Of a DNA stretch of 64,000 nucleotides, positions 4,878 through 63,027 are shown one piece after another. The notes below the pieces were generated by a model. The model saw nothing but the letters and a program-made list of their open reading frames with translations, did not search any database and had not been told where the DNA came from. The stretch lies in the sequence record NC_031928.1. One strand, given 5' to 3'. The translations under genes and the position numbers were made by a program. Origin of the DNA: Escherichia phage WG01. The first letter of the stretch is position 1; each line of letters opens with the position of its first letter.

Positions 4878-4927
4878 GTTATTTCCTCATGTAGTAGGAG
4901 AATATTATCCCATTTCACTTAAAGCAT

Positions 4928-11215: not shown

Positions 11216-11284
11216 ACTTTTTTGCTTTAAATTTTCGACGGTATAATGAATCAAGGACTTTGCCTTTCAATTAAACCGGGTGGT

Positions 11285-20395: not shown

Positions 20396-20709
20396 CTCTT
20401 AGATTTAATTTTATCCAGTTCTTCTTGTATTTGCATTGTAACACATTTTTCTACATGAAGCGCTAGCTCTTCTTTTCGGTCTTCGGAAGGTGTTCCGAAA
20501 TCAACCGACACTTTTCCATCTTTCTCAATAACAATATTCATCACATAAACGATGTGAGCAGTGCCATCGGGTAAAGTAAGCATAATTTCCTGCTTAACAG
20601 AACCCATTGACTTACGGATTATATCTAATGATTTCTCATAATACCGAGGGTCACTAGGACCCTCTTCGGTATCTTTAACAAAATTATCTAAATCAGATAA
20701 ATCAGTCAT
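20380..20709 (-). CDS. hypothetical protein (gene 40 position)
   Basis: 109-aa ORF between uvsX and 41; assignment by position only. Confidence 0.45.
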   Translation of the reverse strand: MTDLSDLDNFVKDTEEGPSDPRYYEKSLDIIRKSMGSVKQEIMLTLPDGTAHIVYVMNIVIEKDGKVSVDFGTPSEDRKEELALHVEKCVTMQIQEELDKIKSKRWWKW

Positions 20710-21874
20710 CTAAATCCATCTCTTCTAAATCGCTTTCGATGTCAGCGGCGCTTTGGGTATTTCCGCCTAATTTAACAGCAACGTTCTTAGAGACACGAGA
20801 GTTAATAAGGTCATTTACCGCATCGTCAACTTCTTTAATAGAATTAATTGCACCAAGCTTATACTTATTCTCGATTGCTTCACGGAACGGAGCATGTTTA
20901 AACAGTGGTCCCCAGAACTCAACACAATCGGTAGCTTTAGCACGCCATGCTTTTTCTTCTTGAACCATTTCACCTGTGGTTTCGTCAAGGAATGCACGAT
21001 TATACCAACCAGCTTTAGGTTTCACGACAAAGCCGATATCAGTAGCCATTTCAAGCAATCCACTGAATGGGTCGATACCACCTTCGAAGTTCACTGTAAT
21101 CGGGAACGTTGATTTCTCTTTAACCGTACGAGATTTCTCGGCCTTCAGTGTGAAGTCATAACCAGTGAGCTCAGTACCATCTTTAACCTGACGTTTAGAG
21201 ATAAAGAACACGGTAGAAGCAGAGTACAGAATACCAGTACCACCACCCATAATCTCTTTAGGGTACATTCCACCAATTTCCATAGCCGTGTGGTTAATTG
21301 CTACACAAGGGATATCTTTGATAGTCAGATAAGGTGTTACGATACGGAACAGAGATTTCAGTGACTTAGCACGGGTCATATCACCTACAACTTTCTCGTT
21401 CAAAGCATCTTCGGTTTCTTTCTTAGAAGCAGTGTTACCAATGGAGTCGATAAAGATAATAACCTTTTCGCCACGAGTAATTTCTTCTAACTGGTTGGTC
21501 ATATCAACTTTAAGCTGTTCGACTGACTGGATTGGTGTATGAACCACACGTTCCAAATCAACACCCATCGAACGGAAATAAGATTCTGAAGCACCAAACT
21601 CAGAGTCATAGAACAAACAAATTGCGTCTGGATATTTCTTCATATATGCCGCAACCATGGTAAGTCCAAACAACGTTTTAAAGTGTTTAGATGGAGCAGC
21701 AAAGATTGTCAAACCTGATTGTAAGCCTGCATTCAACGCACCGCCTAATGCAATATTCAGCATAGGGATACGAGTAGGAACTTCGTCACGACCATTAAAC
21801 AATTTAGATTTGGTCAGGTCGGCGGTCATTTTAGAAGTAGAAGCTTTAATCAAACGGGATTTTAAATCAGACAT
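20702..21874 (-). CDS. uvsX: UvsX recombinase (RecA-like)
   Basis: 390 aa; RecA-fold Walker A region around GLQSGLTIFAAPSKHFKT; length as T4 UvsX. Confidence 0.9.
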   Translation of the reverse strand: MSDLKSRLIKASTSKMTADLTKSKLFNGRDEVPTRIPMLNIALGGALNAGLQSGLTIFAAPSKHFKTLFGLTMVAAYMKKYPDAICLFYDSEFGASESYFRSMGVDLERVVHTPIQSVEQLKVDMTNQLEEITRGEKVIIFIDSIGNTASKKETEDALNEKVVGDMTRAKSLKSLFRIVTPYLTIKDIPCVAINHTAMEIGGMYPKEIMGGGTGILYSASTVFFISKRQVKDGTELTGYDFTLKAEKSRTVKEKSTFPITVNFEGGIDPFSGLLEMATDIGFVVKPKAGWYNRAFLDETTGEMVQEEKAWRAKATDCVEFWGPLFKHAPFREAIENKYKLGAINSIKEVDDAVNDLINSRVSKNVAVKLGGNTQSAADIESDLEEMDLDD

Positions 21875-21951: not shown

Positions 21952-22845
21952 TTAAAGGACCACGTCCTCATAACTTGGCATTTCGTGCTCAGAATGGATG
22001 TGGGCACCGAAATAAATGAATTCAGCCAGACCAGGATGGAATACTAAACTGGGATTCTCATGATAAATGATATGAGGTCTTGATTTCAGAATCTGATAAT
22101 ATTCAACCTTACTCGGTTTGAATTTAATAATCTCTACATCAGGACGATGGTCTTCACGCTTAAATGAATCATTCGGATCGGTGATATAAAGGCGAGAACC
22201 TTCAGCCGCAGCTTGGTCTACAACTCTTTCGAATTGATAGCATTTATCTGAGATACGGAATGGATGGAAAATACCATCAATTTTAATAGGCGCTAGACCT
22301 TCAGAGTAACGCTCAATTACTGCGGGATTAATTACCTTTTGGTCTACAAAAATCTTATCAGAGGACGCACCTCGTGACACCAGGACGTCTTTCTGACATT
22401 GATTCAAGACTGTAGTATAAATCGAACGTTCAACTGAACCCACGTCGGTATCAATAAACTCATCGATGTAATAACGAGGAACTTCAGGGTCCATTGTAAT
22501 GTTAAAGTTGAATTGTACAGTCTGAGTGCCATCATAACCTGTGATATCGGTTACCAATCCTGAGCAGTCATAGTATTCGATTAACGAATCAACAACGAAC
22601 TCATTTTCAGACCAAAAATGTTTACGAGTTTCATAAGCATTTTCTTTATACCAAAGCGGTACAAAATTCAGTTCAGGAAATAATTCAATGCATTCTTTGA
22701 TATCGCTCGAATTTCTAGGATAAGCCAGATAATCACCTGGGCAAGCACGGTTTAAATGGAGTTGAAAATTACCGTCCTTAAGGACGGCATATTCACCTGT
22801 TTCGTAACTACGCATACTGAAAATAGGAACGATAAACAAACTCAT
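21952..22845 (-). CDS. orphan protein at the beta-glucosyltransferase locus; candidate hmC glycosyl(arabinosyl)transferase
   Basis: 297-aa ORF, ATGA-coupled to gene 42; occupies the position of beta-gt but does not resemble recalled T4 beta-gt; function inferred from context only. Confidence 0.6.
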   Translation of the reverse strand: MSLFIVPIFSMRSYETGEYAVLKDGNFQLHLNRACPGDYLAYPRNSSDIKECIELFPELNFVPLWYKENAYETRKHFWSENEFVVDSLIEYYDCSGLVTDITGYDGTQTVQFNFNITMDPEVPRYYIDEFIDTDVGSVERSIYTTVLNQCQKDVLVSRGASSDKIFVDQKVINPAVIERYSEGLAPIKIDGIFHPFRISDKCYQFERVVDQAAAEGSRLYITDPNDSFKREDHRPDVEIIKFKPSKVEYYQILKSRPHIIYHENPSLVFHPGLAEFIYFGAHIHSEHEMPSYEDVVL

Positions 22846-23540
22846 TTCAGGAATCCTCGAACGTAGTCAAAATCACGTTCAAATACGTGTGCACTAACCA
22901 TAGTATGGGAATACGTACCCAGACCAACACCACACTGTTCAGCAATAAAGGCCATCAGTTTACCCTGCAGATAGAAATCCAGCTGCATAACAATAGCACA
23001 GTTCTGTGAACGCATATGGGTATGTGCATAAAGACGTCCATCACGAATATAATATGTCACTGAATCAGTACATGGATATTCTAAGGATTCGTCAGAATCA
23101 AGGAGGGCTTGGTCTTGTTCTTGGAGAATTTGGAACACAACTCGTCTTGAGTTAGGCTTCTCTTTAAGCTCTTTAAGTAAGGCTGGGAGTTGGGCCACAA
23201 TTCTAGGTCCATAGAAAGTGTTGAAGTTTGCAGGCAATACGTCACTTTTCGGCTTATCAATGAACTTAGCAACATTAGGGTATTCCTTAAATGCTTCGGC
23301 GGCGTCAGTACCACCAGAAATCATAAACTTCCAGAAAGATTCGGCATAATCATAGTTGATACGATTAATACGAGGGTCGGTGAATTTATAGGTGCTTGCA
23401 TCCAGTACTTCTACCGAAGCAGAACCAATTTCATAACAACGGCCGATACGAGAATCAACTGCAAACTGTGGAGCTTCCAGGATTTCTTCGTTCATTTGCT
23501 TAAACGCGTTTTCAAAACTAACAGCGGTAATGTGTTTCAT
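22842..23540 (-). CDS. 42: dCMP hydroxymethylase (thymidylate synthase family)
   Basis: 232 aa; TS-family blocks PNSRRVVFQI, YPCTDSVTYYIRDGRL, MRSQNCAIVMQLDFY align with recalled T4 gp42 (PDSRR, CTNTVQYLIRD, MRSND). Confidence 0.75.
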   Translation of the reverse strand: MKHITAVSFENAFKQMNEEILEAPQFAVDSRIGRCYEIGSASVEVLDASTYKFTDPRINRINYDYAESFWKFMISGGTDAAEAFKEYPNVAKFIDKPKSDVLPANFNTFYGPRIVAQLPALLKELKEKPNSRRVVFQILQEQDQALLDSDESLEYPCTDSVTYYIRDGRLYAHTHMRSQNCAIVMQLDFYLQGKLMAFIAEQCGVGLGTYSHTMVSAHVFERDFDYVRGFLK

Positions 23541-24073
23541 TTATTCACCTTATTTTCAATATATTCATTCAGACGTTTTAATTCTACCATATCGACGTTA
23601 AGCAAGTTATTATGGCCGTCGTGATTTAAGATTTTAAACACGTTTTCAAAACATGTTTCATATTGCCGGATAGTTAGGTTGAACTCATCTTTGGTTAATT
23701 TAATAAGGTCATCTTCAAAGTCTTTATCCAGTGGATTACGGGTTAAAATAACCTCAATAATATTGAATTCAGATTTAAACCCTTTCCAATCTTCCAGTTC
23801 TACATAAGGGTCCATTTCACCACGAAGGAATCCAGAGTAAACAATATTACTAGGATACCCACGGTCTAAGATGTAGACAAAATTAGGGTCTAAAAACTTA
23901 TACAACGTCTCGACTAAAGCCTTGTCATTATCAGTCCCTAATGAAATGCATTTGCCATTAATCTTTTTAGGGAAATCAATAAGACGATATTTCTTATCAG
24001 ATAAAAGTGATTCAATTAAAGTAGACTTCCCGGAATTATCCGGGCCGTCGATAACAATGATTTTTGGTTTCAC
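23537..24073 (-). CDS. P-loop kinase (dNMP/thymidylate kinase-like fold)
   Basis: 178 aa; Walker A IVIDGPDNSGKST at N-terminus; first codon is GTG overlapping the upstream stop. Confidence 0.6.
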   Translation of the reverse strand: MKPKIIVIDGPDNSGKSTLIESLLSDKKYRLIDFPKKINGKCISLGTDNDKALVETLYKFLDPNFVYILDRGYPSNIVYSGFLRGEMDPYVELEDWKGFKSEFNIIEVILTRNPLDKDFEDDLIKLTKDEFNLTIRQYETCFENVFKILNHDGHNNLLNVDMVELKRLNEYIENKVNK

Positions 24074-24444
24074 GGATGATATGCCTTATAGGTTTCAAGA
24101 GTTCCTTCACGAACCATTTCTTTAAAGTGGTCAGGACGGATTGCTCGGTCATCGATGATAAAAGTATAACTCGGCTTATGTGTAAGCAGATTGTGATATT
24201 TCAATCCAATCTTTTCAAGGTTCTTAACTAATGCAGGAACTACTTCAACCAAGATTCGACCCGGGCCGCATGAAGTCATACCACGGGCAGTGAACAAGGT
24301 AATCTCGTACCCTTCATCATAAAGCTTATTAATCATGGACACCATTTCGGTGTCCGGTTTAAAGTTTTCGTAATCACGGTCATCTTGCCAGTGAGTAATG
24401 GTATTATCGATATCAAAACACAGATGCATTAAATTTTCTTCCAT
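24070..24444 (-). CDS. HAD-superfamily phosphatase
   Basis: 124 aa; HAD motif I FDIDNTIT near N-terminus; alternative start at 24429. Confidence 0.6.
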   Translation of the reverse strand: MEENLMHLCFDIDNTITHWQDDRDYENFKPDTEMVSMINKLYDEGYEITLFTARGMTSCGPGRILVEVVPALVKNLEKIGLKYHNLLTHKPSYTFIIDDRAIRPDHFKEMVREGTLETYKAYHP

Positions 24445-26102
24445 TGTTTGTGGAGTTCGGTAGAACCTGTAGGTTTATATTTTACACCAGTTTCCTGGTC
24501 AAGCAAAACCCACTTATCAGGACAACGAGTGATAATTTGAGCCGTGATAGGGTCGCGAACTTCATCAACGAATTCACCTGTGATAAGCTTACGCTTACGA
24601 GGATGCCGCTTCAGCAGCACACTCAGTTGATATAGCCCATTGTAATAAGCGCCCAGAGCTTTCAGAGGGTTATTTTTAAAGTAACCTGCCAATGCCATCC
24701 AAATAACGGCAATCCAGAGCTTGTGCTTAAATGTACACATCGGAATATCATCTAAAGGCATAACCTTTTCAATATCAACGAATACACGAGTTCCGTTACG
24801 AGTTAATCCGCCCCATAGAGGGTCAGAGTTAAATTTGTCATAACCATCGATAGAATAAAGCACCTTAGCTTCATCATAAATCGCAGGGCCTTTAGAACTA
24901 TTACCAAAATAACCACGTGGGTCGATGATTTTAATATTACCTTCGTCCGACAACATAATATTACTGTAGTGCGGGTCGCCATGAATAAGTTGGTACGGTT
25001 CTTTATGTTCAGACAGAATTTCTAAGGCGTGACGAAGAAGTTTTTCTGGGTCGCCTACCTTGAAGTCGTTAACATGGGTAATACCCTGTGGAGCAAAGCC
25101 TTCAATCAATCCGGCAATAGAAGCATTACGAATAAGGACCTTGTCCAATACTTCTTTCTTAACATCAGAATACCATTGCTCATCGGACGGATTATCGATA
25201 GTTCCACCGAACGAACGTAATGCACTAATAACCTTATAAACCATTAGGACTTTAGTTTCTTTAGACATAAACCGGTAGGCATCTGCCATGGTTCGACCAA
25301 AGATACGTTCCATTTTAATGAATTCGCCTGGAGCAAAGTCTACAATGCTAGGAACGAATTCGGAATCAATAGAATTATACCAATTGATTTCTTTAGATTG
25401 GATTTCTTTACCCAATTCGTTAGTTGGTACTTTAATAGCTAGATTCTCGGTGAACTCTAATTTATTAAATTCACGGTTAATTTCAGAATCTTCATGCGCC
25501 TTAGCCAGTTTCAGTTTGTCACCAACATCAACTACAAAGTCTAACTTACGTTCAGTCAAATGGACCATTGAATCCAGGTTGTCAGCAAGGTCTTCACCAT
25601 AATTAGAACGGTCGAAACCTGTCCAATTAGCCACCTGATACAAGCCAACTACGCCACCACCGGTACCAATTTCACGCAAGTACGGTTCTTCAAATGTAAA
25701 ACGACAGTCAGTCCCATAGGTATAACAGTAGTCGTTATCCCACTCAACTTTATGACCTTCAGGAATAATATCACACCAGTTAAACAAGACATTGTGCCCA
25801 ATGATATCTTCGGCAATGCAATCGATAGCATGAGCCGAACCATTGGCAACATCAACGTTACGAATAGTGAATTTAGGCTTATCACTATTAATCATGTTAA
25901 TGGATTTAATATAGCCTTTAACGAGGTCGTTAAATTTGCTGTGAATAACCAGAATAATTTCATCTGATTGATTACTATACAAATCATACAAATGTTTTAA
26001 TACAGTATGTTGTTTGTAGTTAACCAGTACCTTCGGGATTTCGTTGGTAATTGGATACAACCGTGAGCCAAGACCCGCGCCTAAAATAACAACCTTTTTC
26101 AT
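24429..26102 (-). CDS. bifunctional sugar-1-phosphate nucleotidyltransferase / APH-fold sugar kinase
   Basis: 557 aa from ATG 26102 (GAGGAA RBS); N-terminal NTase motif ILGAGLGSRLYPIT; C-terminal kinase motifs LIHGDPHYSNIM and IIDPRGYFG. Confidence 0.75.
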   Translation of the reverse strand: MKKVVILGAGLGSRLYPITNEIPKVLVNYKQHTVLKHLYDLYSNQSDEIILVIHSKFNDLVKGYIKSINMINSDKPKFTIRNVDVANGSAHAIDCIAEDIIGHNVLFNWCDIIPEGHKVEWDNDYCYTYGTDCRFTFEEPYLREIGTGGGVVGLYQVANWTGFDRSNYGEDLADNLDSMVHLTERKLDFVVDVGDKLKLAKAHEDSEINREFNKLEFTENLAIKVPTNELGKEIQSKEINWYNSIDSEFVPSIVDFAPGEFIKMERIFGRTMADAYRFMSKETKVLMVYKVISALRSFGGTIDNPSDEQWYSDVKKEVLDKVLIRNASIAGLIEGFAPQGITHVNDFKVGDPEKLLRHALEILSEHKEPYQLIHGDPHYSNIMLSDEGNIKIIDPRGYFGNSSKGPAIYDEAKVLYSIDGYDKFNSDPLWGGLTRNGTRVFVDIEKVMPLDDIPMCTFKHKLWIAVIWMALAGYFKNNPLKALGAYYNGLYQLSVLLKRHPRKRKLITGEFVDEVRDPITAQIITRCPDKWVLLDQETGVKYKPTGSTELHKQWKKI

Positions 26103-26162
26103 TATCTGTTCCTCAAGTGAATGTAGGTACATTATACACTATTTTTAATAAATTGGTATTGC

Positions 26163-26663
26163 TTAAATCTTATCTTTACCGATTTCAATACACTGTTCTA
26201 TTGCCGCCGGTGCTTTGGTCTTGAGCTTATCGATTTGTTTCTTATAATCACGAGCTTTACCGAAGCTCTCGGTTTCGAGCATTTCGTAATAACGAGCCTC
26301 GTGGATGGAAATCTGTAGATTGATATGGTTTACGCACATCGCATACAGTTTCTGCTTTTTGTACAAATCATCTTGACGCTTCATTTCTGCCTGGTGTTTG
26401 GCTAGTACCGCTTCACGCTTGGACTCTTGTTCACGTTGGAATTCGATTTCCCTTTGAGCATATTTTGCACAGTTATTACCACATTGATTATTGGCTCGGG
26501 TGTACACAAGTCCAGAACCTGCACGGAATTTCATTTCGCCATCGAATTGTTTCTGTTCAGCTGCGATACGAGCTTTACCAACTTCATCAGCCGAAACTGC
26601 ATCACCATATTGGACCGCGCAACCTGATAGGAGCATACTCATTGCGATAATTAACTTTTTCAT
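26163..26663 (-). CDS. putative lipoprotein with coiled-coil region
   Basis: 166 aa; signal peptide with lipobox LLSGC; GAGGA RBS. Confidence 0.55.
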   Translation of the reverse strand: MKKLIIAMSMLLSGCAVQYGDAVSADEVGKARIAAEQKQFDGEMKFRAGSGLVYTRANNQCGNNCAKYAQREIEFQREQESKREAVLAKHQAEMKRQDDLYKKQKLYAMCVNHINLQISIHEARYYEMLETESFGKARDYKKQIDKLKTKAPAAIEQCIEIGKDKI

Positions 26664-26670
26664 AATATCC

Positions 26671-26808
26671 TCAATTAAAACAGTTATACTTAATTTGTGC
26701 TATAAGAATAATCCATCCGATGATTAGTGTCGGAATCATTGGCGGAATTGCCACTGCCCAATAAATGGTAAAGGCAGTCATTATAAGAAATAAAATAATT
26801 ATTTTCAT
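26671..26808 (-). CDS. small membrane protein (45 aa)
   Basis: Hand-translated hydrophobic ORF MKIIILFLIMTAFTIYWAVAIPPMIPTLIIGWIIL...; ATGA-coupled to imm; below track cutoff. Confidence 0.35.
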   Translation of the reverse strand: MKIIILFLIMTAFTIYWAVAIPPMIPTLIIGWIILIAQIKYNCFN

Positions 26809-27041
26809 TGCTTAACAATAATGATTTGTGCGTTTGATTTACGTTCAGCGACGATAGCCCAGATTAAAGCCACTACCCAACCAATCATAGTCCATCCTAA
26901 CAGAAGGTTTAGGAAGAAAATTCCGACATTACTACGAGTGCCTCGCAGAAGAGCCAGAATCCATGGTAAAAAGTAACCGATGAACATAATAACCAGAGAA
27001 CCGAATCCTAAAACACCAGCACTAACGATTAAAGCTTCCAT
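26805..27041 (-). CDS. imm: superinfection immunity membrane protein
   Basis: 78 aa, two TM helices, LNLLLGWTMIGWVVALIWA block typical of Imm family; position next to 43. Confidence 0.6.
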   Translation of the reverse strand: MEALIVSAGVLGFGSLVIMFIGYFLPWILALLRGTRSNVGIFFLNLLLGWTMIGWVVALIWAIVAERKSNAQIIIVKQ

Positions 27042-27103: not shown

Positions 27104-29815
27104 TTAAAAGTCGAACATATCAAATAATGTTGCTTTTTTCTCGTAGTCGATTTTAGCAGACTCAGTAAAACCGGTCAGAGGCTTGATAAAGGTCTTTTGG
27201 AACAGTACGTTGTAGTCCATCCAACGGAGGACCTGGTCGCGAATCTGAACCGGGAGTTCAATACCTGACGGCCATGCCATACAAGCTTCACCGAACGGGT
27301 TGCCTTCTTTAAGTGGCAGTACATATACCTTTTCACCATCAACGATACGAGGCATAGTCAAATCACCTGCAGAAGCACGCATGTAAGCTAAGCAACCTTT
27401 GATGTGGTATGGACATTTAGAACCCGGGAATCCACCTTCATTATATTTCTCGATGTTGTTAGCACTGGATACTGCTGCAATGCTTACATAGTTGAGTTCG
27501 TTAAATTCCTTATTAAACTGTTTGAAATATTCTTGCAAAGATGCCTCGCCTTCCTGAAGCATACGACGGATACATTCCTTCAGAGCTTTCTGAACTGCTT
27601 TAGGTGTACTTGATTTCTGAGTTTCAAGGCCCATGATTTTCAAGTGCGGTTCGGCATAACGAGTACCTTCCATGTCCCAAACGTTCAGTGCATAACGTTT
27701 CTTGCCTGTCCAGAATCCACCAAGACCTTTAGAACCAAGTGGAGGACCTGCGATAGCTTCTCGGTCCATGAACATCAAGTGTTGTTTGTTGTTCATGTAT
27801 TCGCACATCTCACGGAAGCCTGCATCAATAGCTGGTTCCATACGTTCACGTGCAAATTTATCTAAGAAGTCGACCCAGTGGTTAGTATCACGGAATTTAT
27901 CTTCGCCTACTTTATTGATGATTGCATCTGCCTTAACATAAATGGAGTCAGTATCACCGTAGAGCACGAACTTCTGGTTTTCAGTCTTACACACGCTATT
28001 CAGATATTCGTTAACCTTACGTTCAATCCATTGGAGGGCCATTTGACCAAACAATGTGATTGCAGTTGCGTTCCTGAGGTCATAGTAACGGAACCATACG
28101 TTACCAAGTGCACCATAAAGGGAGTTGATAAGCAACTTACGGTTAATCTGAGCAGTGTTACCTGCAACTTCAGTGAGCTCGGCTTTCTTCAACATTTCTC
28201 TTAAAGAAGGCGCTGACAGTGCTTTAATCTGGGCTTTGATTTCGTCAGAGAAGTCAAAACGATAATCGATATCCAGTGGACTATCAACTGAGAGATTAGG
28301 ATTTTCCAATGCTTCTTTAATTAACTCGCCATTACGTTGAGCTGCAAGCATGTAACCTTTATGTTCTTTACGCTGCAAGAATACCTTTGTGATTTCTGTC
28401 GGAATCACACCTTCACGGTCTTTATAATACATCATGCCGTTAGGAGAGCAACTGTAGGTGTCGCTAGGACGCGGAGCTGTTCCGGCAATATATTCATGTA
28501 TCGGTGCGTTAGCGAATGTCCCTGCGATGGTCTCTGGGCTTATATTCACTTGTCTAATGATACTCGGGTACAGAGATGTAAGGTCGAAACTCATTACATA
28601 TTTGTAAGCGTTAGGAATCGGTTCCTTAACGAAAGCACCAGGATAAGGTTGGACCACGTGCGAACGAGCTTGTGGAATTACCTTGCCTTGTTCTTTAAGG
28701 CTATTAAAGATAATAGCGTCCCAAGTCTTAATTGGACTAAACACCGACTGAATCTGCATCTTGGCATAATAACCCATGTCCAAACTCAGAAGAATGAACT
28801 GACGCTTCATATCAATCTGCACTACACGATATACGTCGATAATGTTATAGGAAATATATCGTTGGTGGTTCGTCTCACGTAACTTGGAGATTGGGCCATC
28901 ATATTTCAACTTACCTACTTTCAATTCATATTCAGAAACATAATCCAGAGAATAAGAAGGCTGGTTGGTAAAGCTGAATTTTTTATACAGGTCGATATAA
29001 TCCAGAACAGAGATACCGAACAATGTAATGATTTCACGAGCACCGTACATGTTCTCGATAACTTTAACACGAGTTTTACGATGTGGGCTTAATCGCTTAG
29101 CAGTGTTCTCACCGAACAGATTTTTCAGACGGTTATAAACGTACGGTACGTCAAACGACTCAACGTTCCATCCAGTCAAAATCACAGGAGTTTTCTGTTG
29201 CCAGAAATTCAAGTACTCAAGCATCATTTCTTCTTCAGAATTAAACGGAAGATAAACGATTTTGTCAATGATTTCTTGTGGAACTTCGTCACCGCCTTCG
29301 TCTTGGAGTTTCTCAGCGATTTTAATCGACCACTCTTCGACAGTACCATAAGGCGAAACTAAAAGGTCGAATACATAGAATTTATCGTCAATCGAGTCGT
29401 AGTGGGTAATGGCATCGATAGGATGTTTAGCCTGAGCTGGTTCAGGGAATCCATCAGGAGATGTTACCTCGATGTCGAAGTTAGCAATACGAATCTTAGA
29501 AGAATCATATCTGATTTCTTTACGATAGGTATCAGACAAATAGGCTAATTTATAGTCGTCCATACCCAGGGCTTCGAGACCCATATCGTCCATACGTTTC
29601 ATCCATTGGGATGCATCACGCATAGAGTCGAATTCTTTCTTAACACAACCCTTACCATAGATATCAATGTATTTTACGGCTTGCTCTGGATTAGCATGCA
29701 TAAACATTGTAGGCTTGTAAGGAACTTCACGACTACGTTCGTTACCATTTTTATCGATGTAACGTTCGAGAATATTATCACCGATTTGTTCGACTGTCAA
29801 ATAGAATTCTTGCAT
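27104..29815 (-). CDS. 43: DNA polymerase (family B)
   Basis: 903 aa from ATG 29815 (AAGGAAATGAA RBS); exonuclease FDIEV and polymerase YGDTDS motifs; near-identical blocks to recalled RB69/T4 gp43. Confidence 0.95.
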   Translation of the reverse strand: MQEFYLTVEQIGDNILERYIDKNGNERSREVPYKPTMFMHANPEQAVKYIDIYGKGCVKKEFDSMRDASQWMKRMDDMGLEALGMDDYKLAYLSDTYRKEIRYDSSKIRIANFDIEVTSPDGFPEPAQAKHPIDAITHYDSIDDKFYVFDLLVSPYGTVEEWSIKIAEKLQDEGGDEVPQEIIDKIVYLPFNSEEEMMLEYLNFWQQKTPVILTGWNVESFDVPYVYNRLKNLFGENTAKRLSPHRKTRVKVIENMYGAREIITLFGISVLDYIDLYKKFSFTNQPSYSLDYVSEYELKVGKLKYDGPISKLRETNHQRYISYNIIDVYRVVQIDMKRQFILLSLDMGYYAKMQIQSVFSPIKTWDAIIFNSLKEQGKVIPQARSHVVQPYPGAFVKEPIPNAYKYVMSFDLTSLYPSIIRQVNISPETIAGTFANAPIHEYIAGTAPRPSDTYSCSPNGMMYYKDREGVIPTEITKVFLQRKEHKGYMLAAQRNGELIKEALENPNLSVDSPLDIDYRFDFSDEIKAQIKALSAPSLREMLKKAELTEVAGNTAQINRKLLINSLYGALGNVWFRYYDLRNATAITLFGQMALQWIERKVNEYLNSVCKTENQKFVLYGDTDSIYVKADAIINKVGEDKFRDTNHWVDFLDKFARERMEPAIDAGFREMCEYMNNKQHLMFMDREAIAGPPLGSKGLGGFWTGKKRYALNVWDMEGTRYAEPHLKIMGLETQKSSTPKAVQKALKECIRRMLQEGEASLQEYFKQFNKEFNELNYVSIAAVSSANNIEKYNEGGFPGSKCPYHIKGCLAYMRASAGDLTMPRIVDGEKVYVLPLKEGNPFGEACMAWPSGIELPVQIRDQVLRWMDYNVLFQKTFIKPLTGFTESAKIDYEKKATLFDMFDF

Positions 29816-29869
29816 TTCATTTCCTTTATAGACGAGTGATTGTCTTTTGTTTGTTGATGAATCATTATA

Positions 29870-29894
29870 CTCCAAAAGGGACCGAAGTCCCTTT
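29870..29894 (-). terminator. stem-loop terminator upstream of gene 43
   Basis: AAAGGGAC CGAA GTCCCTTT hairpin followed by TTGGAGTATAATG. Confidence 0.55.
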
Positions 29895-32793: not shown

Positions 32794-33207
32794 TTAAGCA
32801 ATAACGATCATTTGTTTACGAATGGATTCAGGCAGAGATTCAATATACTCTGGAATCTGGGAAGCAACAATAGCACCAGCTTCAAGCAGTTGTTCGTCAA
32901 AATCTACACAATAATCATCTTCGAGACGTTCAGAACCATCACGGTCGATAACCAGTTTAGCACCTGCGGCCAGTGAATCATTATAGTGGCGACGCATAAT
33001 TTCTACCCACTTATCGGATACGTCGTTATCAATGATACCGTAGAGCATGAACTTAGTTTCTTGTGGAAGAGACTGCAGACGACGTGCAGAGTCGGTATCA
33101 ATATTCAGTACCCATGATTTACGGATACGGTTTTGATTATGTGGGTTGGAATCAGTACGAATGGTTTTAACTTGGATATCTTTAACAGTAATAGCGTTAG
33201 CAAACAT
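32794..33207 (-). CDS. RpbA-like RNA polymerase-binding protein (by position)
   Basis: ORF between 45 and 46 as T4 rpbA; start moved to internal ATG; no motif verified. Confidence 0.45.
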   Translation of the reverse strand: MFANAITVKDIQVKTIRTDSNPHNQNRIRKSWVLNIDTDSARRLQSLPQETKFMLYGIIDNDVSDKWVEIMRRHYNDSLAAGAKLVIDRDGSERLEDDYCVDFDEQLLEAGAIVASQIPEYIESLPESIRKQMIVIA

Positions 33208-33267
33208 AATATTTTCTCTCATTTGGTTGGTAGATGTATTATAAATCAATATTTTAAAGCACTTAAT

Positions 33268-35359: not shown

Positions 35360-35597
35360 CCTTGATGCATGATTCAGCCATATGAATTAATGTTTCTGGA
35401 GTATCATCTACCATTACATTAAAGCTAAATTCCACAGCCCAATCAGTAGCAACATAAACTTTAATAAGCTCGTTGGTATCGCGAGTGCTCACGGCTTCAA
35501 ACCAGAACTTAATGATATTCGTTTGGTTATCGTCATCAATAACGATGCAGTCGTGTTCTAGTTCAAGGCCTGATTTTTTGAATTCATCTAAAGTCAT
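35334..35597 (-). CDS. hypothetical protein (46.2 position)
   Basis: 87-aa ORF between 46 and 47. Confidence 0.5.
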   Translation of the reverse strand: MTLDEFKKSGLELEHDCIVIDDDNQTNIIKFWFEAVSTRDTNELIKVYVATDWAVEFSFNVMVDDTPETLIHMAESCIKDAYNDENV

Positions 35598-36616
35598 CGT
35601 GTAACCTCATTATAAAGTTGTGCGGCCATAGTCTTAAGGGCTTTAACATCGTCTTCAGTGTGGCCATCAGGAAGGGCATCGATATAATCATACATCATAT
35701 CCAAGAGGGACTTAACTTCATCTTCCTCTTCAGAATCATCGATATCAACACTGTTATCTACCTTAGACACAATACGTAAAGAGTGAACAACCTTTTCAAG
35801 TTCAGATTCGAACTTGGTAAGCCCGTCATCAATTTTATCGACTATAACACGAACCGCAATATTTGTAAAATCTTTGTAATCGATAGTCGCATTCGGATAA
35901 TGAATCTTACGATGCCAACAAGTTTCATTGATGATGAAATCCATTTTATGGGTTTCTGTATCGAAAATCCAGAAGCCACGAGGGTCGTTCTCATCACCTG
36001 CAGTCAGGGTCCATGGCGTACCAATATACTTGACGTTTGCTGCATCAGAAATGGTGTGGAAGTGACCAGACCATACTTGCTTATACTTCTTAAGGAAATC
36101 AGGTTCTAAACCATGTGATTTCATTCCTTTATAGAAATAGAAACCATTTAATTCCCAGTGGCCAATACAGAAATCGGCAGTAGTATTTTTGATATGGTCC
36201 ATGATATCGGTCGTGTTTTCTTCACACATCCATGGAATCAAATCAATTTCTGTACCATCAAAATTAACCGTAGTAGGTTTCTCAATAACCTTGATATGGT
36301 CGTATTTACCCAGAACTTCAGAAGCAGCGTTCGGAGTCAATGTGTTTTTGTAGTGCATATCATGGTTACCAACGACCGTATACATGGTAATGCCGTTGGC
36401 TTTAAGCAAATCGGAGATTTCGCGAGCGAATTCCATACACTTATGGGTAATTGCTTTACGAACGTCAAAGATATCACCGTATTGAATCCATACAGTAATG
36501 CCATTTGCTTTAGAATAATTAATAGCGTCTTGGATACCTTGACGTTGGATATTTTGTACCCACACATCATCGGCCTTCACTCCAAGGTGCCAGTCACCTG
36601 TGTTTAATATTTTCAT
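35594..36616 (-). CDS. 47: recombination nuclease subunit (Mre11/SbcD-like phosphoesterase)
   Basis: 340 aa from ATG 36616; MKILNTGDWHLG phosphoesterase motif I, GNHD motif. Confidence 0.9.
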   Translation of the reverse strand: MKILNTGDWHLGVKADDVWVQNIQRQGIQDAINYSKANGITVWIQYGDIFDVRKAITHKCMEFAREISDLLKANGITMYTVVGNHDMHYKNTLTPNAASEVLGKYDHIKVIEKPTTVNFDGTEIDLIPWMCEENTTDIMDHIKNTTADFCIGHWELNGFYFYKGMKSHGLEPDFLKKYKQVWSGHFHTISDAANVKYIGTPWTLTAGDENDPRGFWIFDTETHKMDFIINETCWHRKIHYPNATIDYKDFTNIAVRVIVDKIDDGLTKFESELEKVVHSLRIVSKVDNSVDIDDSEEEDEVKSLLDMMYDYIDALPDGHTEDDVKALKTMAAQLYNEVTR

Positions 36617-36756
36617 AAGCCAAGCGCCGTTATTGCAATGCAAAATAAAATTATTGAAATGAACCCGTCAGGAGTGGAAAAGAATCCTATCCAACAAGCT
36701 CGTGTGAATGTGTAGAATGCCATGAATAACACGACATATCCTAAAAGTAGTTCCAT
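36613..36756 (-). CDS. small membrane protein (47 aa)
   Basis: Hand-translated ORF MELLLGYVVLFMAFYTFTRACWIGFF...; GAGGAGAACA RBS; ATGA-coupled to gene 47; below track cutoff. Confidence 0.4.
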   Translation of the reverse strand: MELLLGYVVLFMAFYTFTRACWIGFFSTPDGFISIILFCIAITALGL

Positions 36757-36799
36757 ATGTTCTCCTCAGTTGGTTCATTTTATCATCCAAATATAAAGC

Positions 36800-36822
36800 A
36801 AAAAAGGAGCCTAAGCTCCTTT
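36800..36822 (-). terminator. stem-loop terminator
   Basis: AAGGAGC CTAA GCTCCTT hairpin with flanking A/T runs. Confidence 0.5.
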
Positions 36823-36984
36823 ACCAACTAATACACCGTACAGAGGTTCGTGATTAGACCTGAACTTGATAGGCTTATAGGTAATAGTACCTTCATTTTC
36901 TGCTTTAATACGAGCGGCTTCAAATTGAAGTATCATCTCATTTTTGTCAGATTTAATCTTATCAAAATCCATCGAATTCGTCAT
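36811..36984 (-). CDS. hypothetical small protein (57 aa)
   Basis: Hand-translated ORF MTNSMDFDKIKSDKNEMILQFEAARIK...; AAGAGG RBS; 3' end overlaps terminator hairpin. Confidence 0.3.
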   Translation of the reverse strand: MTNSMDFDKIKSDKNEMILQFEAARIKAENEGTITYKPIKFRSNHEPLYGVLVGKGA

Positions 36985-37226
36985 TCATACAACCTCTTAA
37001 ACTTTTTCGTATTCGTCTTTCATTAGCCGCCTGTCCACGTTATCATCGTTGCCACCATTTCTTAAGTTGATGAGAATCTACCCAAACCTTGGCTACGGGC
37101 TCAATCCGAAAAATTCCATCGGAATACTGGCCGACCATTTTATATTCGGTTTCGGACTGCTTAATACAGATATTACCGTATGAGCGAAGTCTAAAGGCGG
37201 CTCCAATAAGAAGCCGTTTAAAGGGT

Positions 37227-37538
37227 TTATTTACTAGGGCCATTGACGATTTCCCAAATTTGTTTGCGGGTAGATTCCCACATCAATTGAACAAGTTCAT
37301 CAGTAACAGGTTGACGGTAAATACCACGTAATTTAATTAAAGCGTACTTATATGCTTCAAAGTTGTTTTCAAGTACAGCGCCTTGGGCATGGAGATTTAA
37401 ACGACGGATTTCACGAGCATTCTTCTTAAGAATCTTAGCCGCTTGAGAATTAGCTTCTTTAATATTGTGCTCTTCTAAACGTTGCTGGGCTTCTTCAATT
37501 TGCTCATCAGTCAATTGAGAAATGTCATGGCTTTGCAT
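37227..37538 (-). CDS. hypothetical protein
   Basis: 103-aa ORF with AAGGA RBS. Confidence 0.5.
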   Translation of the reverse strand: MQSHDISQLTDEQIEEAQQRLEEHNIKEANSQAAKILKKNAREIRRLNLHAQGAVLENNFEAYKYALIKLRGIYRQPVTDELVQLMWESTRKQIWEIVNGPSK

Positions 37539-37539
37539 A

Positions 37540-37770
37540 TTAATCCTTTGGAGTCAATTCAATAGTGAAGTAGAAATTAGCGTTCTCAACATGATAACGG
37601 TAATCTACGTTATTGTCAGGAGAAGTGAATTCAATATTCCTGACGTTAAGTGGGTCAATATCAATAGGAAGACCTTTAACATCCCGTAATATCAATTTAA
37701 TAAAATAAGGGAGTGCTTCGAAGTCTTCCATTCCATCTAAAAGTGGAGTGATATTAATCTGATGTTCCAT
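37540..37770 (-). CDS. hypothetical protein
   Basis: ORF-track ORF trimmed to first ATG; upstream of gene 55. Confidence 0.4.
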
Positions 37771-38311
37771 ATAAAAAATCCAGTTCACCAACTTTAGGTT
37801 GGGCACTCTTATCAGACCCTGGTGCTTTAGTTAAAGAGGTTTCATACTGAGTCATTTTGTCGTAGATATCTTGGATAAAGGTTTCATCTGCAATACCTAC
37901 CATGTCGTCATCATTACTGTCATAGACATTATGGACGAAGTAGCTATATTTCTTTGCCATTTCTTTACGTTCTTTTTTGATACGCTGAACGAAGGCATTA
38001 AAACAAGCCATAGTGATATATGCATGTGGGTTGTCGTATTTTGTTTCGTCGAAGTTGTGAAGACCTTTAATCGAAGCTTCGATTCCATCAGCAATCATTT
38101 CTTGCTTCCAAGATTGGGTATATCCTGAGAAGTTGAAACGTTTACTTAGTCCTTCAGCAATGAGCATAATAGCCAAGCCGATAACGTCGTTCTGGCGAAC
38201 TATTTTATTAGGATCGGTATTTTCTCTGAGTTCTGTTTTCCATTGGGTGATAGCTTTCAGAAGCTCCTTATTATTTACATAGTTATTTTTAGTCAGTTTA
38301 ATTTCGGTCAT
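37754..38311 (-). CDS. 55: late-transcription sigma factor
   Basis: 185 aa; length and N-terminal region consistent with T4 gp55; position between 47 and nrd-region genes. Confidence 0.85.
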
Positions 38312-38377
38312 TGTTACCTCAGATAACTCAAATCATAGGTCTATTATATCATAGTATTTGAAGACCCTTTTAAAGCA

Positions 38378-38641
38378 TCAACGGAGTAAGCAATAAGCCT
38401 GAAATACGGTTTCAAGGATTTGTGTGAACTCGGAATAAGAAATTGTATCAGTACATCCATGTTCAGACATATATCCACAAAATTCTTTAAAAAGACCTGG
38501 ATATTCGCGATGGTTGTATTTGGAAATATGAGACTTCCATACTAAAGAAGTCTCACCACAAACAAACTCAACATCCATACGGTTATCTATTAAGAAAAAT
38601 CCGAGACCTTCGTAGGCGAGGGTGGTGGATATGGGTTTCAT
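38378..38641 (-). CDS. hypothetical protein
   Basis: 87-aa ORF in operon frame. Confidence 0.45.
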   Translation of the reverse strand: MKPISTTLAYEGLGFFLIDNRMDVEFVCGETSLVWKSHISKYNHREYPGLFKEFCGYMSEHGCTDTISYSEFTQILETVFQAYCLLR

Positions 38642-42181: not shown

Positions 42182-42490
42182 TTAACGGTCACACCACCAA
42201 CTACTTACTTCAAAATCAGGTTCACCGTGTTCCCAGTACCAAGGACCGACTGGATGCCAATCACCGTGTTCATCTTCTTCAAATTCTTCAGATTCAAGGC
42301 CAACGTATTGCCATTGGACTTCGTAAGCGGTGCCGCCGATTACAACAGTGTTCTCGCCATATGGATGGGCTACAGCAAAGTCTATACCTTCTGCTTTAGC
42401 CAACCAAACCATATATTCGTATAGTTTATATTCCAGGTCATCTTCGGTACCATCACCTAGAAAAATGGTTTGTTCGTTTAATTCAATCAT
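42182..42490 (-). CDS. hypothetical acidic Trp-rich protein
   Basis: ORF-track ORF trimmed to first ATG 42490 (track start is TTG); ATGA-coupled to upstream small ORF. Confidence 0.45.
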   Translation of the reverse strand: MIELNEQTIFLGDGTEDDLEYKLYEYMVWLAKAEGIDFAVAHPYGENTVVIGGTAYEVQWQYVGLESEEFEEDEHGDWHPVGPWYWEHGEPDFEVSSWWCDR

Positions 42491-53739: not shown

Positions 53740-54178
53740 AATCTACCACCACTAAATTAATATCAGGAGTAAACAAATTAATCAATTGGTAAACCTTGTC
53801 CCAATCACCACCAGCAATACCACAACCAATGCGAGGAATATAAATTCTTGGTTTAAACAAAAGACCTTTTGCGGTACGGTTTAATTCTATCATACAGTTT
53901 ACTAAAGCACCATAATCAAGATTAGGGCCTGGTTCGTATTGGGTATATAAATTATAGCAAATTTGGCCATTATTACCTGTAGCTTGAGTAAACGTGCCAA
54001 GTTTTGCCAAATTGCCTAAATAAGTAGTTTTATCGATAGCGAGAATAGGCGGATAAGCCTTAGCCAATTGCCCAGCTACACCTGAACCCATTGTGTGGAA
54101 ACAGTTGCACCCGTGTGCAACATTATTACCTTGAAGAAACAGGGCGACGATATCGCCCTTAATATAATCAATAATCAT
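53711..54178 (-). CDS. macro-domain protein (ADP-ribose binding/processing)
   Basis: 155 aa; GNNVAHGCNCFHTMGSGVAGQLAKAYP macro-domain nucleotide-binding motif. Confidence 0.7.
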   Translation of the reverse strand: MIIDYIKGDIVALFLQGNNVAHGCNCFHTMGSGVAGQLAKAYPPILAIDKTTYLGNLAKLGTFTQATGNNGQICYNLYTQYEPGPNLDYGALVNCMIELNRTAKGLLFKPRIYIPRIGCGIAGGDWDKVYQLINLFTPDINLVVVDYESPLPASV

Positions 54179-62067: not shown

Positions 62068-63027
62068 TTATTTTTCGAAAGGACGAATTAAATGTTGGTT
62101 ACGCTTAAACCGTTCAATGTAGTCGTTTTCACCTAAAGTCTTGTACATATTAACCACAGCTTGGTAGTTTTCCCATGCATAAGTGCGGAACCAACCTGAA
62201 GTGATTGAGGTGCACACTTTCTCAAGGGCCATATAGAAACTTAATGATGGTGAAATATTGAAGTCATTAGGAACCTGTGAACGTTCTAGTGCCAGGACAC
62301 AAGTTTCTTCATACACACCAGCCAGTTTAATAGCTTCAGGCAAAGCCTCGAACTTCTCACGAGAGGTCATGACTTCAGAACCTTCCTTCATATAAAAGGT
62401 ATATGCAGGGCGCCCTGCCAATGCCACTGCTTCATGGATAGAGTCGTGGTCTAGGGTATAAATGGTATCATTAAAGAACGATGATTTGTTTACATCCAAT
62501 TTAGGGTGGGAATAGCTCAACGTTTCTTTTTGACGTTGCAACATAATTTCCTGGAGTTCTTCGTTAAGGGTGATACCTTTATTACGAAGGTATTTGATGT
62601 GGGACATGGTTTTCAAGAAGAACGGATTATTCTTCAAGAAACGATGGGAGGTTTTGATAGCCAGACAGATATCAGGGGTTGCCCAATAGAAACCTGTAAG
62701 ACGGTCCTTTTTAATATGATTTTCAGCATATTTCAGAAGACGATAACTTGAGGTGAAATCTTCATCTTGGAGCTCACCGGTGATTTCTCGTACGTTAGTC
62801 AGAGCACGAACGATATATGCTTCAAAATAGGTTTCTTTACCGTTGTACATGCATTTAAAAGCCTGGACATCAGGATTATCCACAGGAACATGGGCACCAA
62901 ACATCCGAGCTTTAAAGTGATTCCATGAGCCTTGGTCGGCAATGAAATCCCAATCAGAATTTTCGATATGCTTACTTTCAATCAGACCAGCGTGGTGCAG
63001 TGCACGAGAACCAATAACTAACATCAT
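62068..63027 (-). CDS. hypothetical protein with possible nucleotidyltransferase-like N-terminus
   Basis: ORF trimmed to ATG 63027 (GAGGAAAAT RBS); N-terminal GS...DWD spacing loosely resembles Pol-beta NTase motif. Confidence 0.45.
   Translation of the reverse strand: MMLVIGSRALHHAGLIESKHIENSDWDFIADQGSWNHFKARMFGAHVPVDNPDVQAFKCMYNGKETYFEAYIVRALTNVREITGELQDEDFTSSYRLLKYAENHIKKDRLTGFYWATPDICLAIKTSHRFLKNNPFFLKTMSHIKYLRNKGITLNEELQEIMLQRQKETLSYSHPKLDVNKSSFFNDTIYTLDHDSIHEAVALAGRPAYTFYMKEGSEVMTSREKFEALPEAIKLAGVYEETCVLALERSQVPNDFNISPSLSFYMALEKVCTSITSGWFRTYAWENYQAVVNMYKTLGENDYIERFKRNQHLIRPFEK

Follow-up and report, generated by a model that had tools for sequence, protein, structure and literature searches.

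Organization of the gene 55–gene 47 interval

The window analysed here comprises the first 64 kb (64,000 nt) of the genome of a Dhakavirus, a JS98-like T-even phage, with 98.4% identity here to phage PSD2002 and 92.7% identity to JS98, in which the genes annotated at matching positions are called 47.1 and a-gt.2 to a-gt.5. The interval from 36613 to 37770 carries five ORFs on the minus strand, corresponding to 47.1 (47 aa), a-gt.2 (57 aa), a-gt.3 (66 aa), a-gt.4 (103 aa) and a-gt.5 (76 aa), and conserved ORFs fill 1045 of its 1158 nt (90%). Four of them (36613–36756, 36811–36984, 37227–37538 and, with 76 aa counted from its ATG, 37540–37770) had been listed in the original prediction, with sizes that we confirmed; the string of small ORFs that it described lacked a fifth member, the a-gt.3 orthologue at 37043–37243.

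All five ORFs match PHROG families (E = 1e-29 to 1e-40), and three of the five match Pfam domains of unknown function above threshold (DUF5486, 69.7 bits with a cut-off of 27; DUF2654, 81.9 bits with a cut-off of 25; DUF5491, 54.3 bits with a cut-off of 27). Searches with the T4 proteins 47.1, a-gt.2, a-gt.3, a-gt.4 and a-gt.5 using tblastn gave identities of 78, 57, 46, 43 and 41%, and the dN/dS values of the small ORFs against other Dhakaviruses range from 0.04 to 0.30. By these sequence comparisons, each of the five ORFs is an orthologue of the T4 gene of the same name and is under purifying selection.

Gene 55, which encodes the late sigma factor (37754–38311, minus strand; 79% identity to T4 gp55; PHROG 234, E = 1e-68), forms the upstream boundary of the interval, and the start of a-gt.5 overlaps its 3′ end by 17 nt. 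The a-gt.5, a-gt.4, a-gt.3 and a-gt.2 genes follow gene 55, overlapping or abutting each other, and the series closes at a hairpin terminator. A −10 element, TATAAT (38343–38348, minus strand), is the orthologue of that of the T4 middle promoter P55 and lies in a region near-identical to the T4 region with the mapped start site 40180; it is the likely start of a transcription unit consisting of 55, a-gt.5, a-gt.4, a-gt.3 and a-gt.2. No known RNA element was found in an Rfam search of positions 35500–38500 at E ≤ 1.

The a-gt.5 product (37540–37770, minus strand) is an acidic protein with the DUF5491 domain (PF17595, E = 1.8e-14; PHROG 1169). It was matched in 932 phage records, and in nearly all of the matches listed a sigma-factor (gene 55) annotation lies under or beside the match. 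An alternative 88-aa form starting at GTG 37806 was rejected, since the ATG at 37770 is where alignment begins with the PHROG profile and with the orthologues of T4 and JS98. The a-gt.4 product (37227–37538, minus strand) belongs to DUF2654 (PF10849, E = 4e-23; PHROG 951, E = 1e-39) and is predicted to be all-helical; its AlphaFold2 model has four helices (pLDDT 86), with which a Foldseek search of the PDB returned helical matches at chance level only (best E = 1.9). The a-gt.3 product (37043–37243, minus strand) is basic, with a pI of 10, and matches PHROG 1648 (E = 2.7e-29) with a dN/dS of ~0.05. The a-gt.2 product (36811–36984, minus strand) carries DUF5486 (PF17588, E = 2e-19; PHROG 2140) and has a dN/dS of 0.24–0.30. 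A match of a-gt.2 to a ‘head maturation protease’ family (phrog_17354, E = 5e-9) covered 36 residues of a 62-residue profile and was judged to be annotation carry-over. Relatives of solved structure were sought by sequence for a-gt.2, a-gt.3, a-gt.4 and a-gt.5 and none was significant; NCBIfam gave no match for any of the five small proteins, and a literature search on the gene names returned only a-gt.4, mentioned as a conserved ORF of unknown function. The T4 proteomics data assign a protein temporal class to a-gt.2, a-gt.3, a-gt.4 and a-gt.5, and an RNA class only to 47.1. Conservation, selection and the proteomic detection of four T4 orthologues show that the five small ORFs are real genes.

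A predicted terminator and middle-promoter module precedes 47.1 and gene 47

The spacer between a-gt.2 and 47.1, where an a-gt cassette would be, is 54 bp long and contains a terminator hairpin, a MotA-type middle promoter and a strong ribosome-binding site. The hairpin, AAAGGAGC-TTAG-GCTCCTTT followed by a T run (36803–36822, minus strand), was picked up by a terminator scan as resembling an intrinsic terminator, with a fold energy of −13.3 kcal/mol; the stop codon of a-gt.2 lies in its loop, and an equivalent hairpin is found 3′ of a-gt.2 in every genome compared. Pattern matching placed a predicted middle promoter at 36777–36800 (minus strand), with a MotA box TGCTTTA at 36800–36794, an 11-nt spacer and a −10 element TAAAAT at 36782–36777, and transcription is predicted to start near 36770. 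MotA/AsiA-dependent middle promoters are defined by an (a/t)(a/t)(a/t)TGCTTtA box placed 12 ± 1 bp from a good sigma-70 −10 element (PMC2988021), and the sequence found here reads TTTTGCTTTA, 11 nt and TAAAAT at 36800–36777. The pattern of MotA box and −10 element occurs at 8 sites in the window, against 1.4 expected, and the box and −10 element at this position are conserved in JS98, QL01, IME08, AnYang, RB69, T2, T4 and Mineola. In T4, the corresponding middle promoter, PmobB/Pa-gt.1, has been mapped, with its start site at 38682 (PMC2988021, Table 1). In this phage, the promoter leads into 47.1, gene 47 and gene 46. The motA and asiA genes themselves presumably lie outside the first 64 kb, as judged from the T4 map.

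Five nucleotides before its ATG, the 47.1 gene (36613–36756, minus strand) has a Shine-Dalgarno sequence GAGGAG (36762–36767, minus strand), as is evident from the sequence itself. Its 47-aa product matches PHROG 6693 over the full length (E = 1.5e-30), and it is strongly hydrophobic, with two hydrophobic segments and a GRAVY of 1.60, so that the strong ribosome-binding site and the hydrophobicity noted in the original prediction are both borne out. T4 gp47.1 is annotated as a predicted membrane protein. Synonymous sites are saturated in the comparison with T4 (dS 1.1, dN 0.17) and both hydrophobic segments are kept, while the comparison with JS98 gave a dN/dS of 0.036. A tblastn search with 47.1 matched 600 phage records and, among the matches listed, mostly fell on or beside a gene 47 annotation.

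Gene 47 (35594–36616, minus strand) encodes the Mre11/SbcD-like subunit of the recombination nuclease and is 71% identical in amino acid sequence to T4 gp47 (PHROG 100, E = 3e-135). Alignment with T4, JS98 and RB69 places its true start at the ATG at 36616, and the stop codon of 47.1 overlaps this start codon (ATGA). Among the genomes compared, gene 47 has no Shine-Dalgarno sequence where it is preceded by 47.1, and GAGG(A) is present where 47.1 is absent. Since gene 47 is without its own Shine-Dalgarno sequence in this phage, translational coupling to 47.1 is probable. In T4, P47 is a mapped middle promoter with its start at 36576 (PMC2988021), 8 nt inside the 47.1 ORF; T4 gene 47 is thus also transcribed without a translatable 47.1, and coupling is not the sole route to gp47. 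For this phage, the promoter, the terminator and the coupling are assigned from the sequence and from what is known of T4.

Absence of a-gt and b-gt homologues and a predicted arabose-type DNA modification cluster

The T4 map confirms that T4 carries a-gt, the gene for alpha-glucosyltransferase, between genes 47 and 55. A tblastn search with T4 a-gt gave no match in the interval at E ≤ 10, and its best match in the whole 64-kb window, which spans both T4 glucosyltransferase loci, was a stretch of 36 residues (E = 0.019) near 24.2 kb, inside a HAD-phosphatase ORF at 24070–24444; T4 b-gt gave nothing better than E = 1.3 in the window. A frameshifted or remnant a-gt in the interval, the case in which the original prediction would fail, was rejected, as there is no tblastn signal and, with 90% of the interval filled by conserved ORFs, there is no room for a frameshifted 400-aa glycosyltransferase. 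The absence of a-gt asserted earlier, alongside that of T4-type glucosylation, accordingly stands, with no homologue of a-gt or b-gt in 64 kb. JS98 and RB69 have been described as lacking glucosyltransferase genes (Petrov 2010). By gene content and order, the only difference from T2 is one absent cassette (a-gt; in T4 also mobB) between a-gt.2 and 47.1.

In the slot occupied by gene 42 and b-gt in T4, the window contains a hypermodification cluster (21952–26132, minus strand) that is homologous to the arabosyl-5-hydroxycytosine pathway of RB69 and, as there, lies between uvsX and gene 43. It consists, all on the minus strand, of an arabosyltransferase-like gene (21952–22845), a homologue of the ThyA-like 5-hydroxy-dCMP synthase (22842–23540), a nucleotide kinase (23537–24073), the HAD phosphatase (24070–24444) and a fusion of a sugar-1-P nucleotidyltransferase and a kinase (24429–26132). 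Identities to RB69 are 79% for gp48, 63–69% for gp46:47, 62% for gp51, 41–44% for gp52:53 and 37% for gp45, and the Pfam and NCBIfam domains agree with the assignments. The gene functions follow those given for RB69 and DLP3 (PMC13326640), and the same study counts Dhakaviruses among the groups in which comparative genomics suggested that 5-hydroxy-dC biosynthesis is conserved. The RB69/DLP3-type gene set, comprising a ThyA-homologue synthase, a DNA arabosyltransferase and AfhE/AfhF-like UDP-arabose enzymes, was found between uvsX and gene 43.

With homologues of the RB69-type 5-hydroxy-dCMP synthase, the first arabosyltransferase and the UDP-arabose pathway, the phage would make a cytosine modification different from that of T4. 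By this homology it would have no glucosyl-acceptor hmC, and a-gt would therefore not be needed; the absence of a-gt fits a phage that may decorate its DNA with arabose-type sugars instead of glucose. RB69 has in addition a second arabosyltransferase (p003), p050 and an arabose-5-P isomerase (p055), and none of these has a homologue in this window; the two phages may therefore not carry exactly the same sugar decoration. The loss of glucosylation proposed earlier is consistent with the missing glucosyltransferase homologues but gives an incomplete description, because the RB69-type cluster replaces gene 42 and b-gt.

Variable content of the slot across T-even phages

The order of a-gt.2 to a-gt.5 downstream of gene 55 is identical in T4, T2, RB69, JS98 and Mineola, and the block is kept in every genome examined in detail. 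The maps read 47/47.1/a-gt/mobB/a-gt.2–5/55 in T4, the same without mobB in T2, 47/a-gt.2–5/55 in RB69 and 47/a-gt/a-gt.2–5/55 in Mineola. The synteny comparison with T4, RB69 and other T-even genomes suggested in the original prediction thus finds a-gt lacking here, the slot variable and the a-gt.2–5 block shared. Content does vary, as had been proposed for an accessory slot, but the variable part is narrower than the interval, being bounded by the promoter module after a-gt.2 and the start codon of gene 47. The module itself is conserved across genera. Gene 47 can follow it directly, or the two can be separated by 47.1, by a homing endonuclease or by a-gt, which may or may not be accompanied by 47.1 or mobB.

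Dhakaviruses themselves show three states of the slot: empty, occupied by 47.1, or occupied by a 205-aa GIY-YIG-like endonuclease. The 47–55 region of JS98, JS10 and IME08 in GenBank (EF469154, NC_014260) has the same order, the five small genes and the spacer, at 92–98% DNA identity. Points of difference are a-gt.5, whose allele here is of the IME08 type (100% identical to IME08, QL01 and AnYang, 41% to T4 and only 38% to JS98), and the slot of IME08 and QL01, where the GIY-YIG-like endonuclease takes the place of this phage's 47.1. T4 and T2 share with this phage the orthologous flanking and small genes in the same order as well as the terminator and MotA promoter after a-gt.2. They differ in carrying the 400-aa alpha-glucosyltransferase and a second promoter module (P47), together with the MobB endonuclease in T4, all of which are absent here, so that 47.1 stands directly behind the first module. 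The a-gt cassette of T2 and T4 accordingly lies between the terminator/promoter module and 47.1, with a second, similar module at its 3′ end. RB69, a Mosigvirus, resembles this phage in lacking a-gt and in having the a-gt.2–5 block directly upstream of gene 47 behind the same stem-loop/MotA module; unlike this phage, it has no 47.1, and its gene 47 has its own Shine-Dalgarno sequence.

The breakpoints between these arrangements fall just after the conserved −10 element in five Dhakaviruses, RB69, T2, T4 and Mineola, and their positions suggest recombination at the modules. The repeated stem-loop/promoter modules and the shared leader probably serve as recombination boundaries in the manner of PeSL/PmSL elements, and the first gene behind the module could thereby be swapped, lost or gained. 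In PeSL/PmSL elements, which lie at the borders of indels that distinguish related genomes, a promoter follows a stem-loop (Arbiol 2010, PMC2839356; Comeau 2014, PMC4122927), an arrangement also seen here with a promoter of the MotA-box middle type, hence PmSL. Duplicated copies of such elements flank a cassette, likewise around the a-gt cassette of T2 and T4. These elements have been described mainly in the hyperplastic regions of RB49/phi1, PST/T4 and nt-1/KVP40, whereas the module here lies inside a conserved replication/recombination block, and recombination at it is deduced from breakpoint positions.

Discussion

We regard it as very probable that the interval is the conserved stretch between genes 55 and 47 that T-even-type genomes ordinarily carry, arranged as is usual in phages lacking glucosyl-hmC. 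The original prediction had read it differently, as a locus at which a lineage losing glucosylation had exchanged an ancestral a-gt for novel accessory small ORFs, one of them a new membrane peptide. The missing a-gt, an interval that holds small ORFs only and the differing content of the slot between phages all agree with that reading, but it can hardly be correct: the small ORFs do not replace a-gt, as all five (47.1 and a-gt.2 to a-gt.5) have orthologues in T4 and T2 at the same relative positions, where they flank a-gt itself; the a-gt site here is a 54-bp regulatory spacer; and the presence of another hypermodification cluster speaks against a simple loss of modification. A separate matter is whether a-gt was ever in the Dhakavirus lineage. 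If the compact arrangement were ancestral, a-gt and its 3′ stem-loop/promoter module would have been inserted in the glucosyl-hmC lineages (Tequatrovirus, Jiaodavirus). A tblastn search with a-gt matched 657 phage records, and the matches listed are Tequatrovirus-type or Klebsiella Jiaodavirus-type phages; many other genera have a compact 47-to-55 interval, and the cassette bears its own duplicated regulatory module, like the mobile cassettes of T4-type phages. Such an insertion is a possibility that we hold only tentatively, because a-gt of T4 and of Mineola (Jiaodavirus) are 66% identical, near the 71% of the flanking gp47, and occupy the same site, and because at this locus T4 is closer to RB69, which has no a-gt, than to Mineola. 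The divergence pattern leans towards an ancient presence of a-gt followed by loss in arabosylating lineages, although local comparisons in mosaic phages are weak evidence on direction.

Under the preferred reading, that of a conserved segment of real genes, there is also the role of 47.1 to consider. It is improbable that 47.1 (or another of the small ORFs) is not a functional protein, with 47.1 acting as a translated leader that brings ribosomes to gene 47. The ATGA overlap, the missing Shine-Dalgarno sequence of gene 47 when 47.1 is present, the dispensability of 47.1 in RB69, Mineola, AnYang and QL01 and the lack of proteomic detection of the T4 protein would be expected of a leader. The peptide sequence itself is nevertheless conserved, as the 78% identity to T4 and the low dN/dS against JS98 indicate, and T4 47.1 has no UniProt identifier in the proteomics table, so that its non-detection may be technical. 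A further idea, to which we give very little credence, is that 47.1 might be no passive accessory gene but a membrane partner of the gp46/gp47 (Rad50/Mre11-like) nuclease, made in the same passage of ribosomes as gp47, in keeping with the ATGA overlap and the missing Shine-Dalgarno sequence of gene 47, and tethering or gating the nuclease at the inner membrane. Such a partnership would account for an old report, cited by title in PMC3016280, that T4 genes 46 and 47 control a membrane-associated DNase; if true, lineages in which 47.1 has been patchily lost or in which a homing endonuclease has taken its place would be those with a different regulation of the nuclease.

The gene content of the interval is already known from the JS98 annotation of 2007. 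That JS98-type phages have no glucosyltransferases was pointed out in 2010, and studies of relatives from 2018–2026 established the arabosyl-5-hydroxycytosine chemistry. The locus therefore carries little weight as a discovery, and the useful points are practical. The absence of a-gt should not be taken for a simple loss and has to be viewed alongside the modification cluster at 22–26 kb. Functional work could legitimately be directed at the five small genes, which are conserved in T-even phages and expressed in T4. Finally, the stem-loop/middle-promoter module illustrates cleanly how a regulatory landing pad can stay fixed while the first gene behind it varies, being a-gt, mobB, 47.1, a homing endonuclease or gene 47.

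Small genes between genes 47 and 55

Megablast of 35500–38400 returned 193 matching phage records, the best being that of Escherichia phage PSD2002, a Dhakavirus (98.4% identity over the full length of the query), with JS98 matching at 92.7%. Because of these matches and the positions of rIIA (48–2255) and gene 39 (3063–4877), the window is identified, on sequence, as the initial 64 kb of a T-even-type genome resembling JS98, its genes lying on the minus strand. The ORF listing and the sequence place five minus-strand ORFs in 36613–37770, where they occupy 1045 of 1158 nt: 47.1 (36613–36756, 47 aa), a-gt.2 (36811–36984, 57 aa), a-gt.3 (37043–37243, 66 aa), a-gt.4 (37227–37538, 103 aa) and a-gt.5 (37540–37770, 76 aa counted from ATG). 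The original prediction had sized four of them correctly but overlooked a-gt.3. All five match PHROG families (E=1e-29 to 1e-40), three exceed the gathering score of a Pfam DUF (DUF5486, DUF2654 and DUF5491), and their dN/dS values are 0.04–0.30 (Nei-Gojobori, against JS98, IME08 and AnYang). These ORFs are real genes in an ordinary arrangement that is already annotated, the JS98 GenBank record naming the counterparts 47.1, a-gt.2, a-gt.3, a-gt.4 and a-gt.5.

The T4 RefSeq order is 47, 47.1, a-gt, mobB, a-gt.2, a-gt.3, a-gt.4, a-gt.5 and 55, so that a-gt does lie between 47 and 55 in T4, as had been stated. The proposal that small ORFs had replaced it is wrong, because tblastn places the T4 proteins at these exact positions in the window (47.1, 78% identity; a-gt.2, 57%; a-gt.3, 46%; a-gt.4, 43%; a-gt.5, 41%); by homology and by the T4 and T2 maps, the five ORFs are conserved neighbours of a-gt. 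T2 has the T4 order without mobB, and its sole difference from the window is a-gt itself, which stands between a-gt.2 and 47.1 where the window has a 54-bp spacer (36757–36810).

A time course of the T4 proteome and transcriptome (PMC9697503, supplementary files 4 and 6) records early RNA for all five genes and assigns a protein class to a-gt.2 to a-gt.5 but not to 47.1. Sequence searches of PDB with a-gt.2 to a-gt.5, and of NCBIfam with all five small proteins, returned nothing significant. The a-gt.4 product, which PMC1524935 lists among conserved ORFs with no function assigned, gave a confident four-helix AlphaFold2 model that found no match in a PDB fold search. The acidic a-gt.5 shares 17 nt with the end of gene 55. 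It occurs in 932 phage records, and in nearly all of those listed its neighbour is gene 55; 47.1 occurs in 600 and a-gt in 657. The a-gt.5 protein of the window is identical (100%) to those of IME08, QL01 and AnYang and only 38% identical to that of JS98 (L001, the JS98 sequence, 2571–2798), whereas the flanking gp55 and a-gt.4 are 84–99% identical within Dhakavirus. One genus thus holds two deeply divergent alleles of this small protein, a pattern that suggests allelic replacement or very fast evolution.

A hypermodification cluster in place of gene 42 and b-gt

Neither a-gt nor mobB nor b-gt of T4 gave a meaningful tblastn match in the 64-kb window, and no hidden glycosyltransferase was recoverable from 36613–37770; a-gt is absent, as predicted. 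T4 carries segA, b-gt and gene 42 between uvsX and gene 43. The corresponding interval here, between uvsX (20702–21874) and gene 43 (27104–29875), holds a DNA hypermodification cluster in the 42/b-gt slot (21952–26132, minus strand), homologous to the arabosyl-5-hydroxycytosine genes of RB69. It encodes a 297-aa protein (63–69% identical to RB69 gp46:47), a ThyA-like protein (79% to RB69 gp48, only 25% to T4 gp42), a P-loop kinase (37% to gp45), a HAD phosphatase (62% to gp51) and a nucleotidyltransferase/kinase fusion (41–44% to gp52:53). RB69 gp48 has been shown to act as a 5-hydroxy-dCMP synthase, arabosyl transfer and UDP-arabose synthesis are the functions assigned to the other RB69 cluster proteins, and comparative genomics has suggested conserved 5-hydroxy-dC biosynthesis in groups including the Dhakaviruses (PMC13326640). 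Since this RB69-type cluster is present and Petrov et al. 2010 already noted that JS98 and RB69 are without glucosyltransferase genes (PMC2993671), absence of glucosylation is supported; the predicted loss is, however, better read from gene content as a different hypermodification than as a bare loss.

No homologue of RB69p003 (the second arabosyltransferase), RB69p050 or RB69p055 (arabose-5-phosphate isomerase) was found in 1–64000 at E<=1e-3, and the exact sugar pattern may therefore differ from that of RB69. The decoration of this phage may be simpler than that of RB69, or the phage may rely on host KdsD/GutQ.

Between the cluster and a 78-aa membrane ORF (26805–27041) lies a 166-aa ORF (26163–26663, minus strand) with a lipoprotein-like N-terminus, MKKLIIAMSMLLSGC, and no significant Pfam family.

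A predicted terminator and promoter module upstream of 47.1

On the coding strand, a terminator scan found a hairpin, AAAGGAGC-TTAG-GCTCCTTT, formed by the last a-gt.2 codons and the stop codon and followed by a T run (fold energy −13.3 kcal/mol). Next to it, TTTTGCTTTA, 11 nt and TAAAAT fit the MotA-box middle-promoter consensus of Hinton 2010 (PMC2988021), followed by a short leader with GAGGAG and the 47.1 ATG. The MotA-box/−10 pattern has 8 sites in the window against 1.4 expected, the other exact matches being at 169–192, 4902–4926, 33238–33261 and 53884–53909 (minus strand) and at 11223–11247, 42392–42417 and 62818–62843 (plus strand). The site at 33238–33261 is directly upstream of an ORF at 32794–33249.

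The module of hairpin and promoter lies 3' of a-gt.2 in JS98, PSD2002, QL01, IME08, AnYang, RB69, T2, T4 and Mineola. At its T4 counterpart lies the mapped middle promoter PmobB/Pa-gt.1 (start site 38682, 6 nt after the identified −10), and a second, similar module at the a-gt 3' end in T4 matches the position of mapped P47 (start site 36576; PMC2988021). The T4 P55 region is also kept in the window, upstream of gene 55. Conservation of these elements makes a two-unit layout likely, in which P55 would drive 55, a-gt.5, a-gt.4, a-gt.3 and a-gt.2 up to the terminator, and the middle promoter after it would drive 47.1, 47 and 46.

The 47.1 product has two hydrophobic segments (GRAVY 1.60) and GAGGAG 5 nt 5' of its ATG, which bears out the predicted strongly hydrophobic ORF with a strong RBS. 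Its dN/dS against JS98 is 0.036 (dN 0.17 and dS 1.1 against T4), indicating that the peptide sequence itself is constrained. The 47.1 stop and the gene 47 start overlap as ATGA in the window (36613–36616), JS98, T4 (L004, 4445–4448) and T2 (L010, 5447–5450), and in these four, where 47.1 precedes, gene 47 has no Shine-Dalgarno sequence; AnYang, RB69 and Mineola, without 47.1, have GAGG(A) 5–8 nt upstream of gene 47. We infer that 47.1 and gene 47 are translationally coupled. However, T4 P47 starts 8 nt inside the 47.1 ORF, and some T4 gene 47 mRNA therefore cannot encode 47.1. A gene 47 start at TTG 36643 (35594–36643, 349 aa), given by the ORF list, was rejected; alignment with T4, JS98 and RB69 favours ATG 36616 (340 aa).

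A narrow variable slot and the history of a-gt

From the conserved −10 element to the ATG of gene 47, RB69 and AnYang have nothing, this window, JS98 and PSD2002 have 47.1, QL01 and IME08 have a 205-aa GIY-YIG-like endonuclease gene, Klebsiella phage Mineola has a-gt alone, T2 has a-gt and 47.1, and T4 has mobB, a-gt and 47.1. The predicted variable accessory slot thus exists but is a narrow one: all genomes examined in detail share the block of a-gt.2 to a-gt.5. Similarity between the genomes stops right after the −10 element. The same behaviour has been described for T4-type genomes (PMC4122927), where composite elements of stem-loop and promoter, called PeSL or, with a MotA-type promoter, PmSL, lie at the edges of indels.

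The endonuclease-like gene occupies the 47.1 position in QL01 (L003, 1604–2221) and IME08 (L008, about 1288–1905); its GIY-YIG match is weak (E=0.003), and the QL01 annotation says HNH. The ORF is intact and unannotated in IME08, whose gene 47 is annotated with a spurious N-terminal extension. AnYang (L009, 1317–1378) has neither 47.1 nor the endonuclease, and the promoter module is followed by gene 47 with its own RBS, GAGGA. The AnYang record leaves a-gt.2 and a-gt.3 unannotated although its DNA carries both.

T4 and Mineola have a-gt at the same site and are 66% identical in a-gt, not far from their identity in gp47 (71%) and gp55 (77%), and RB69 is nearer to T4 at the 47–55 locus (gp55, 90%) than Mineola is. 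This local comparison leans, tentatively, towards an old a-gt that would have been lost in the arabosylating lineages.
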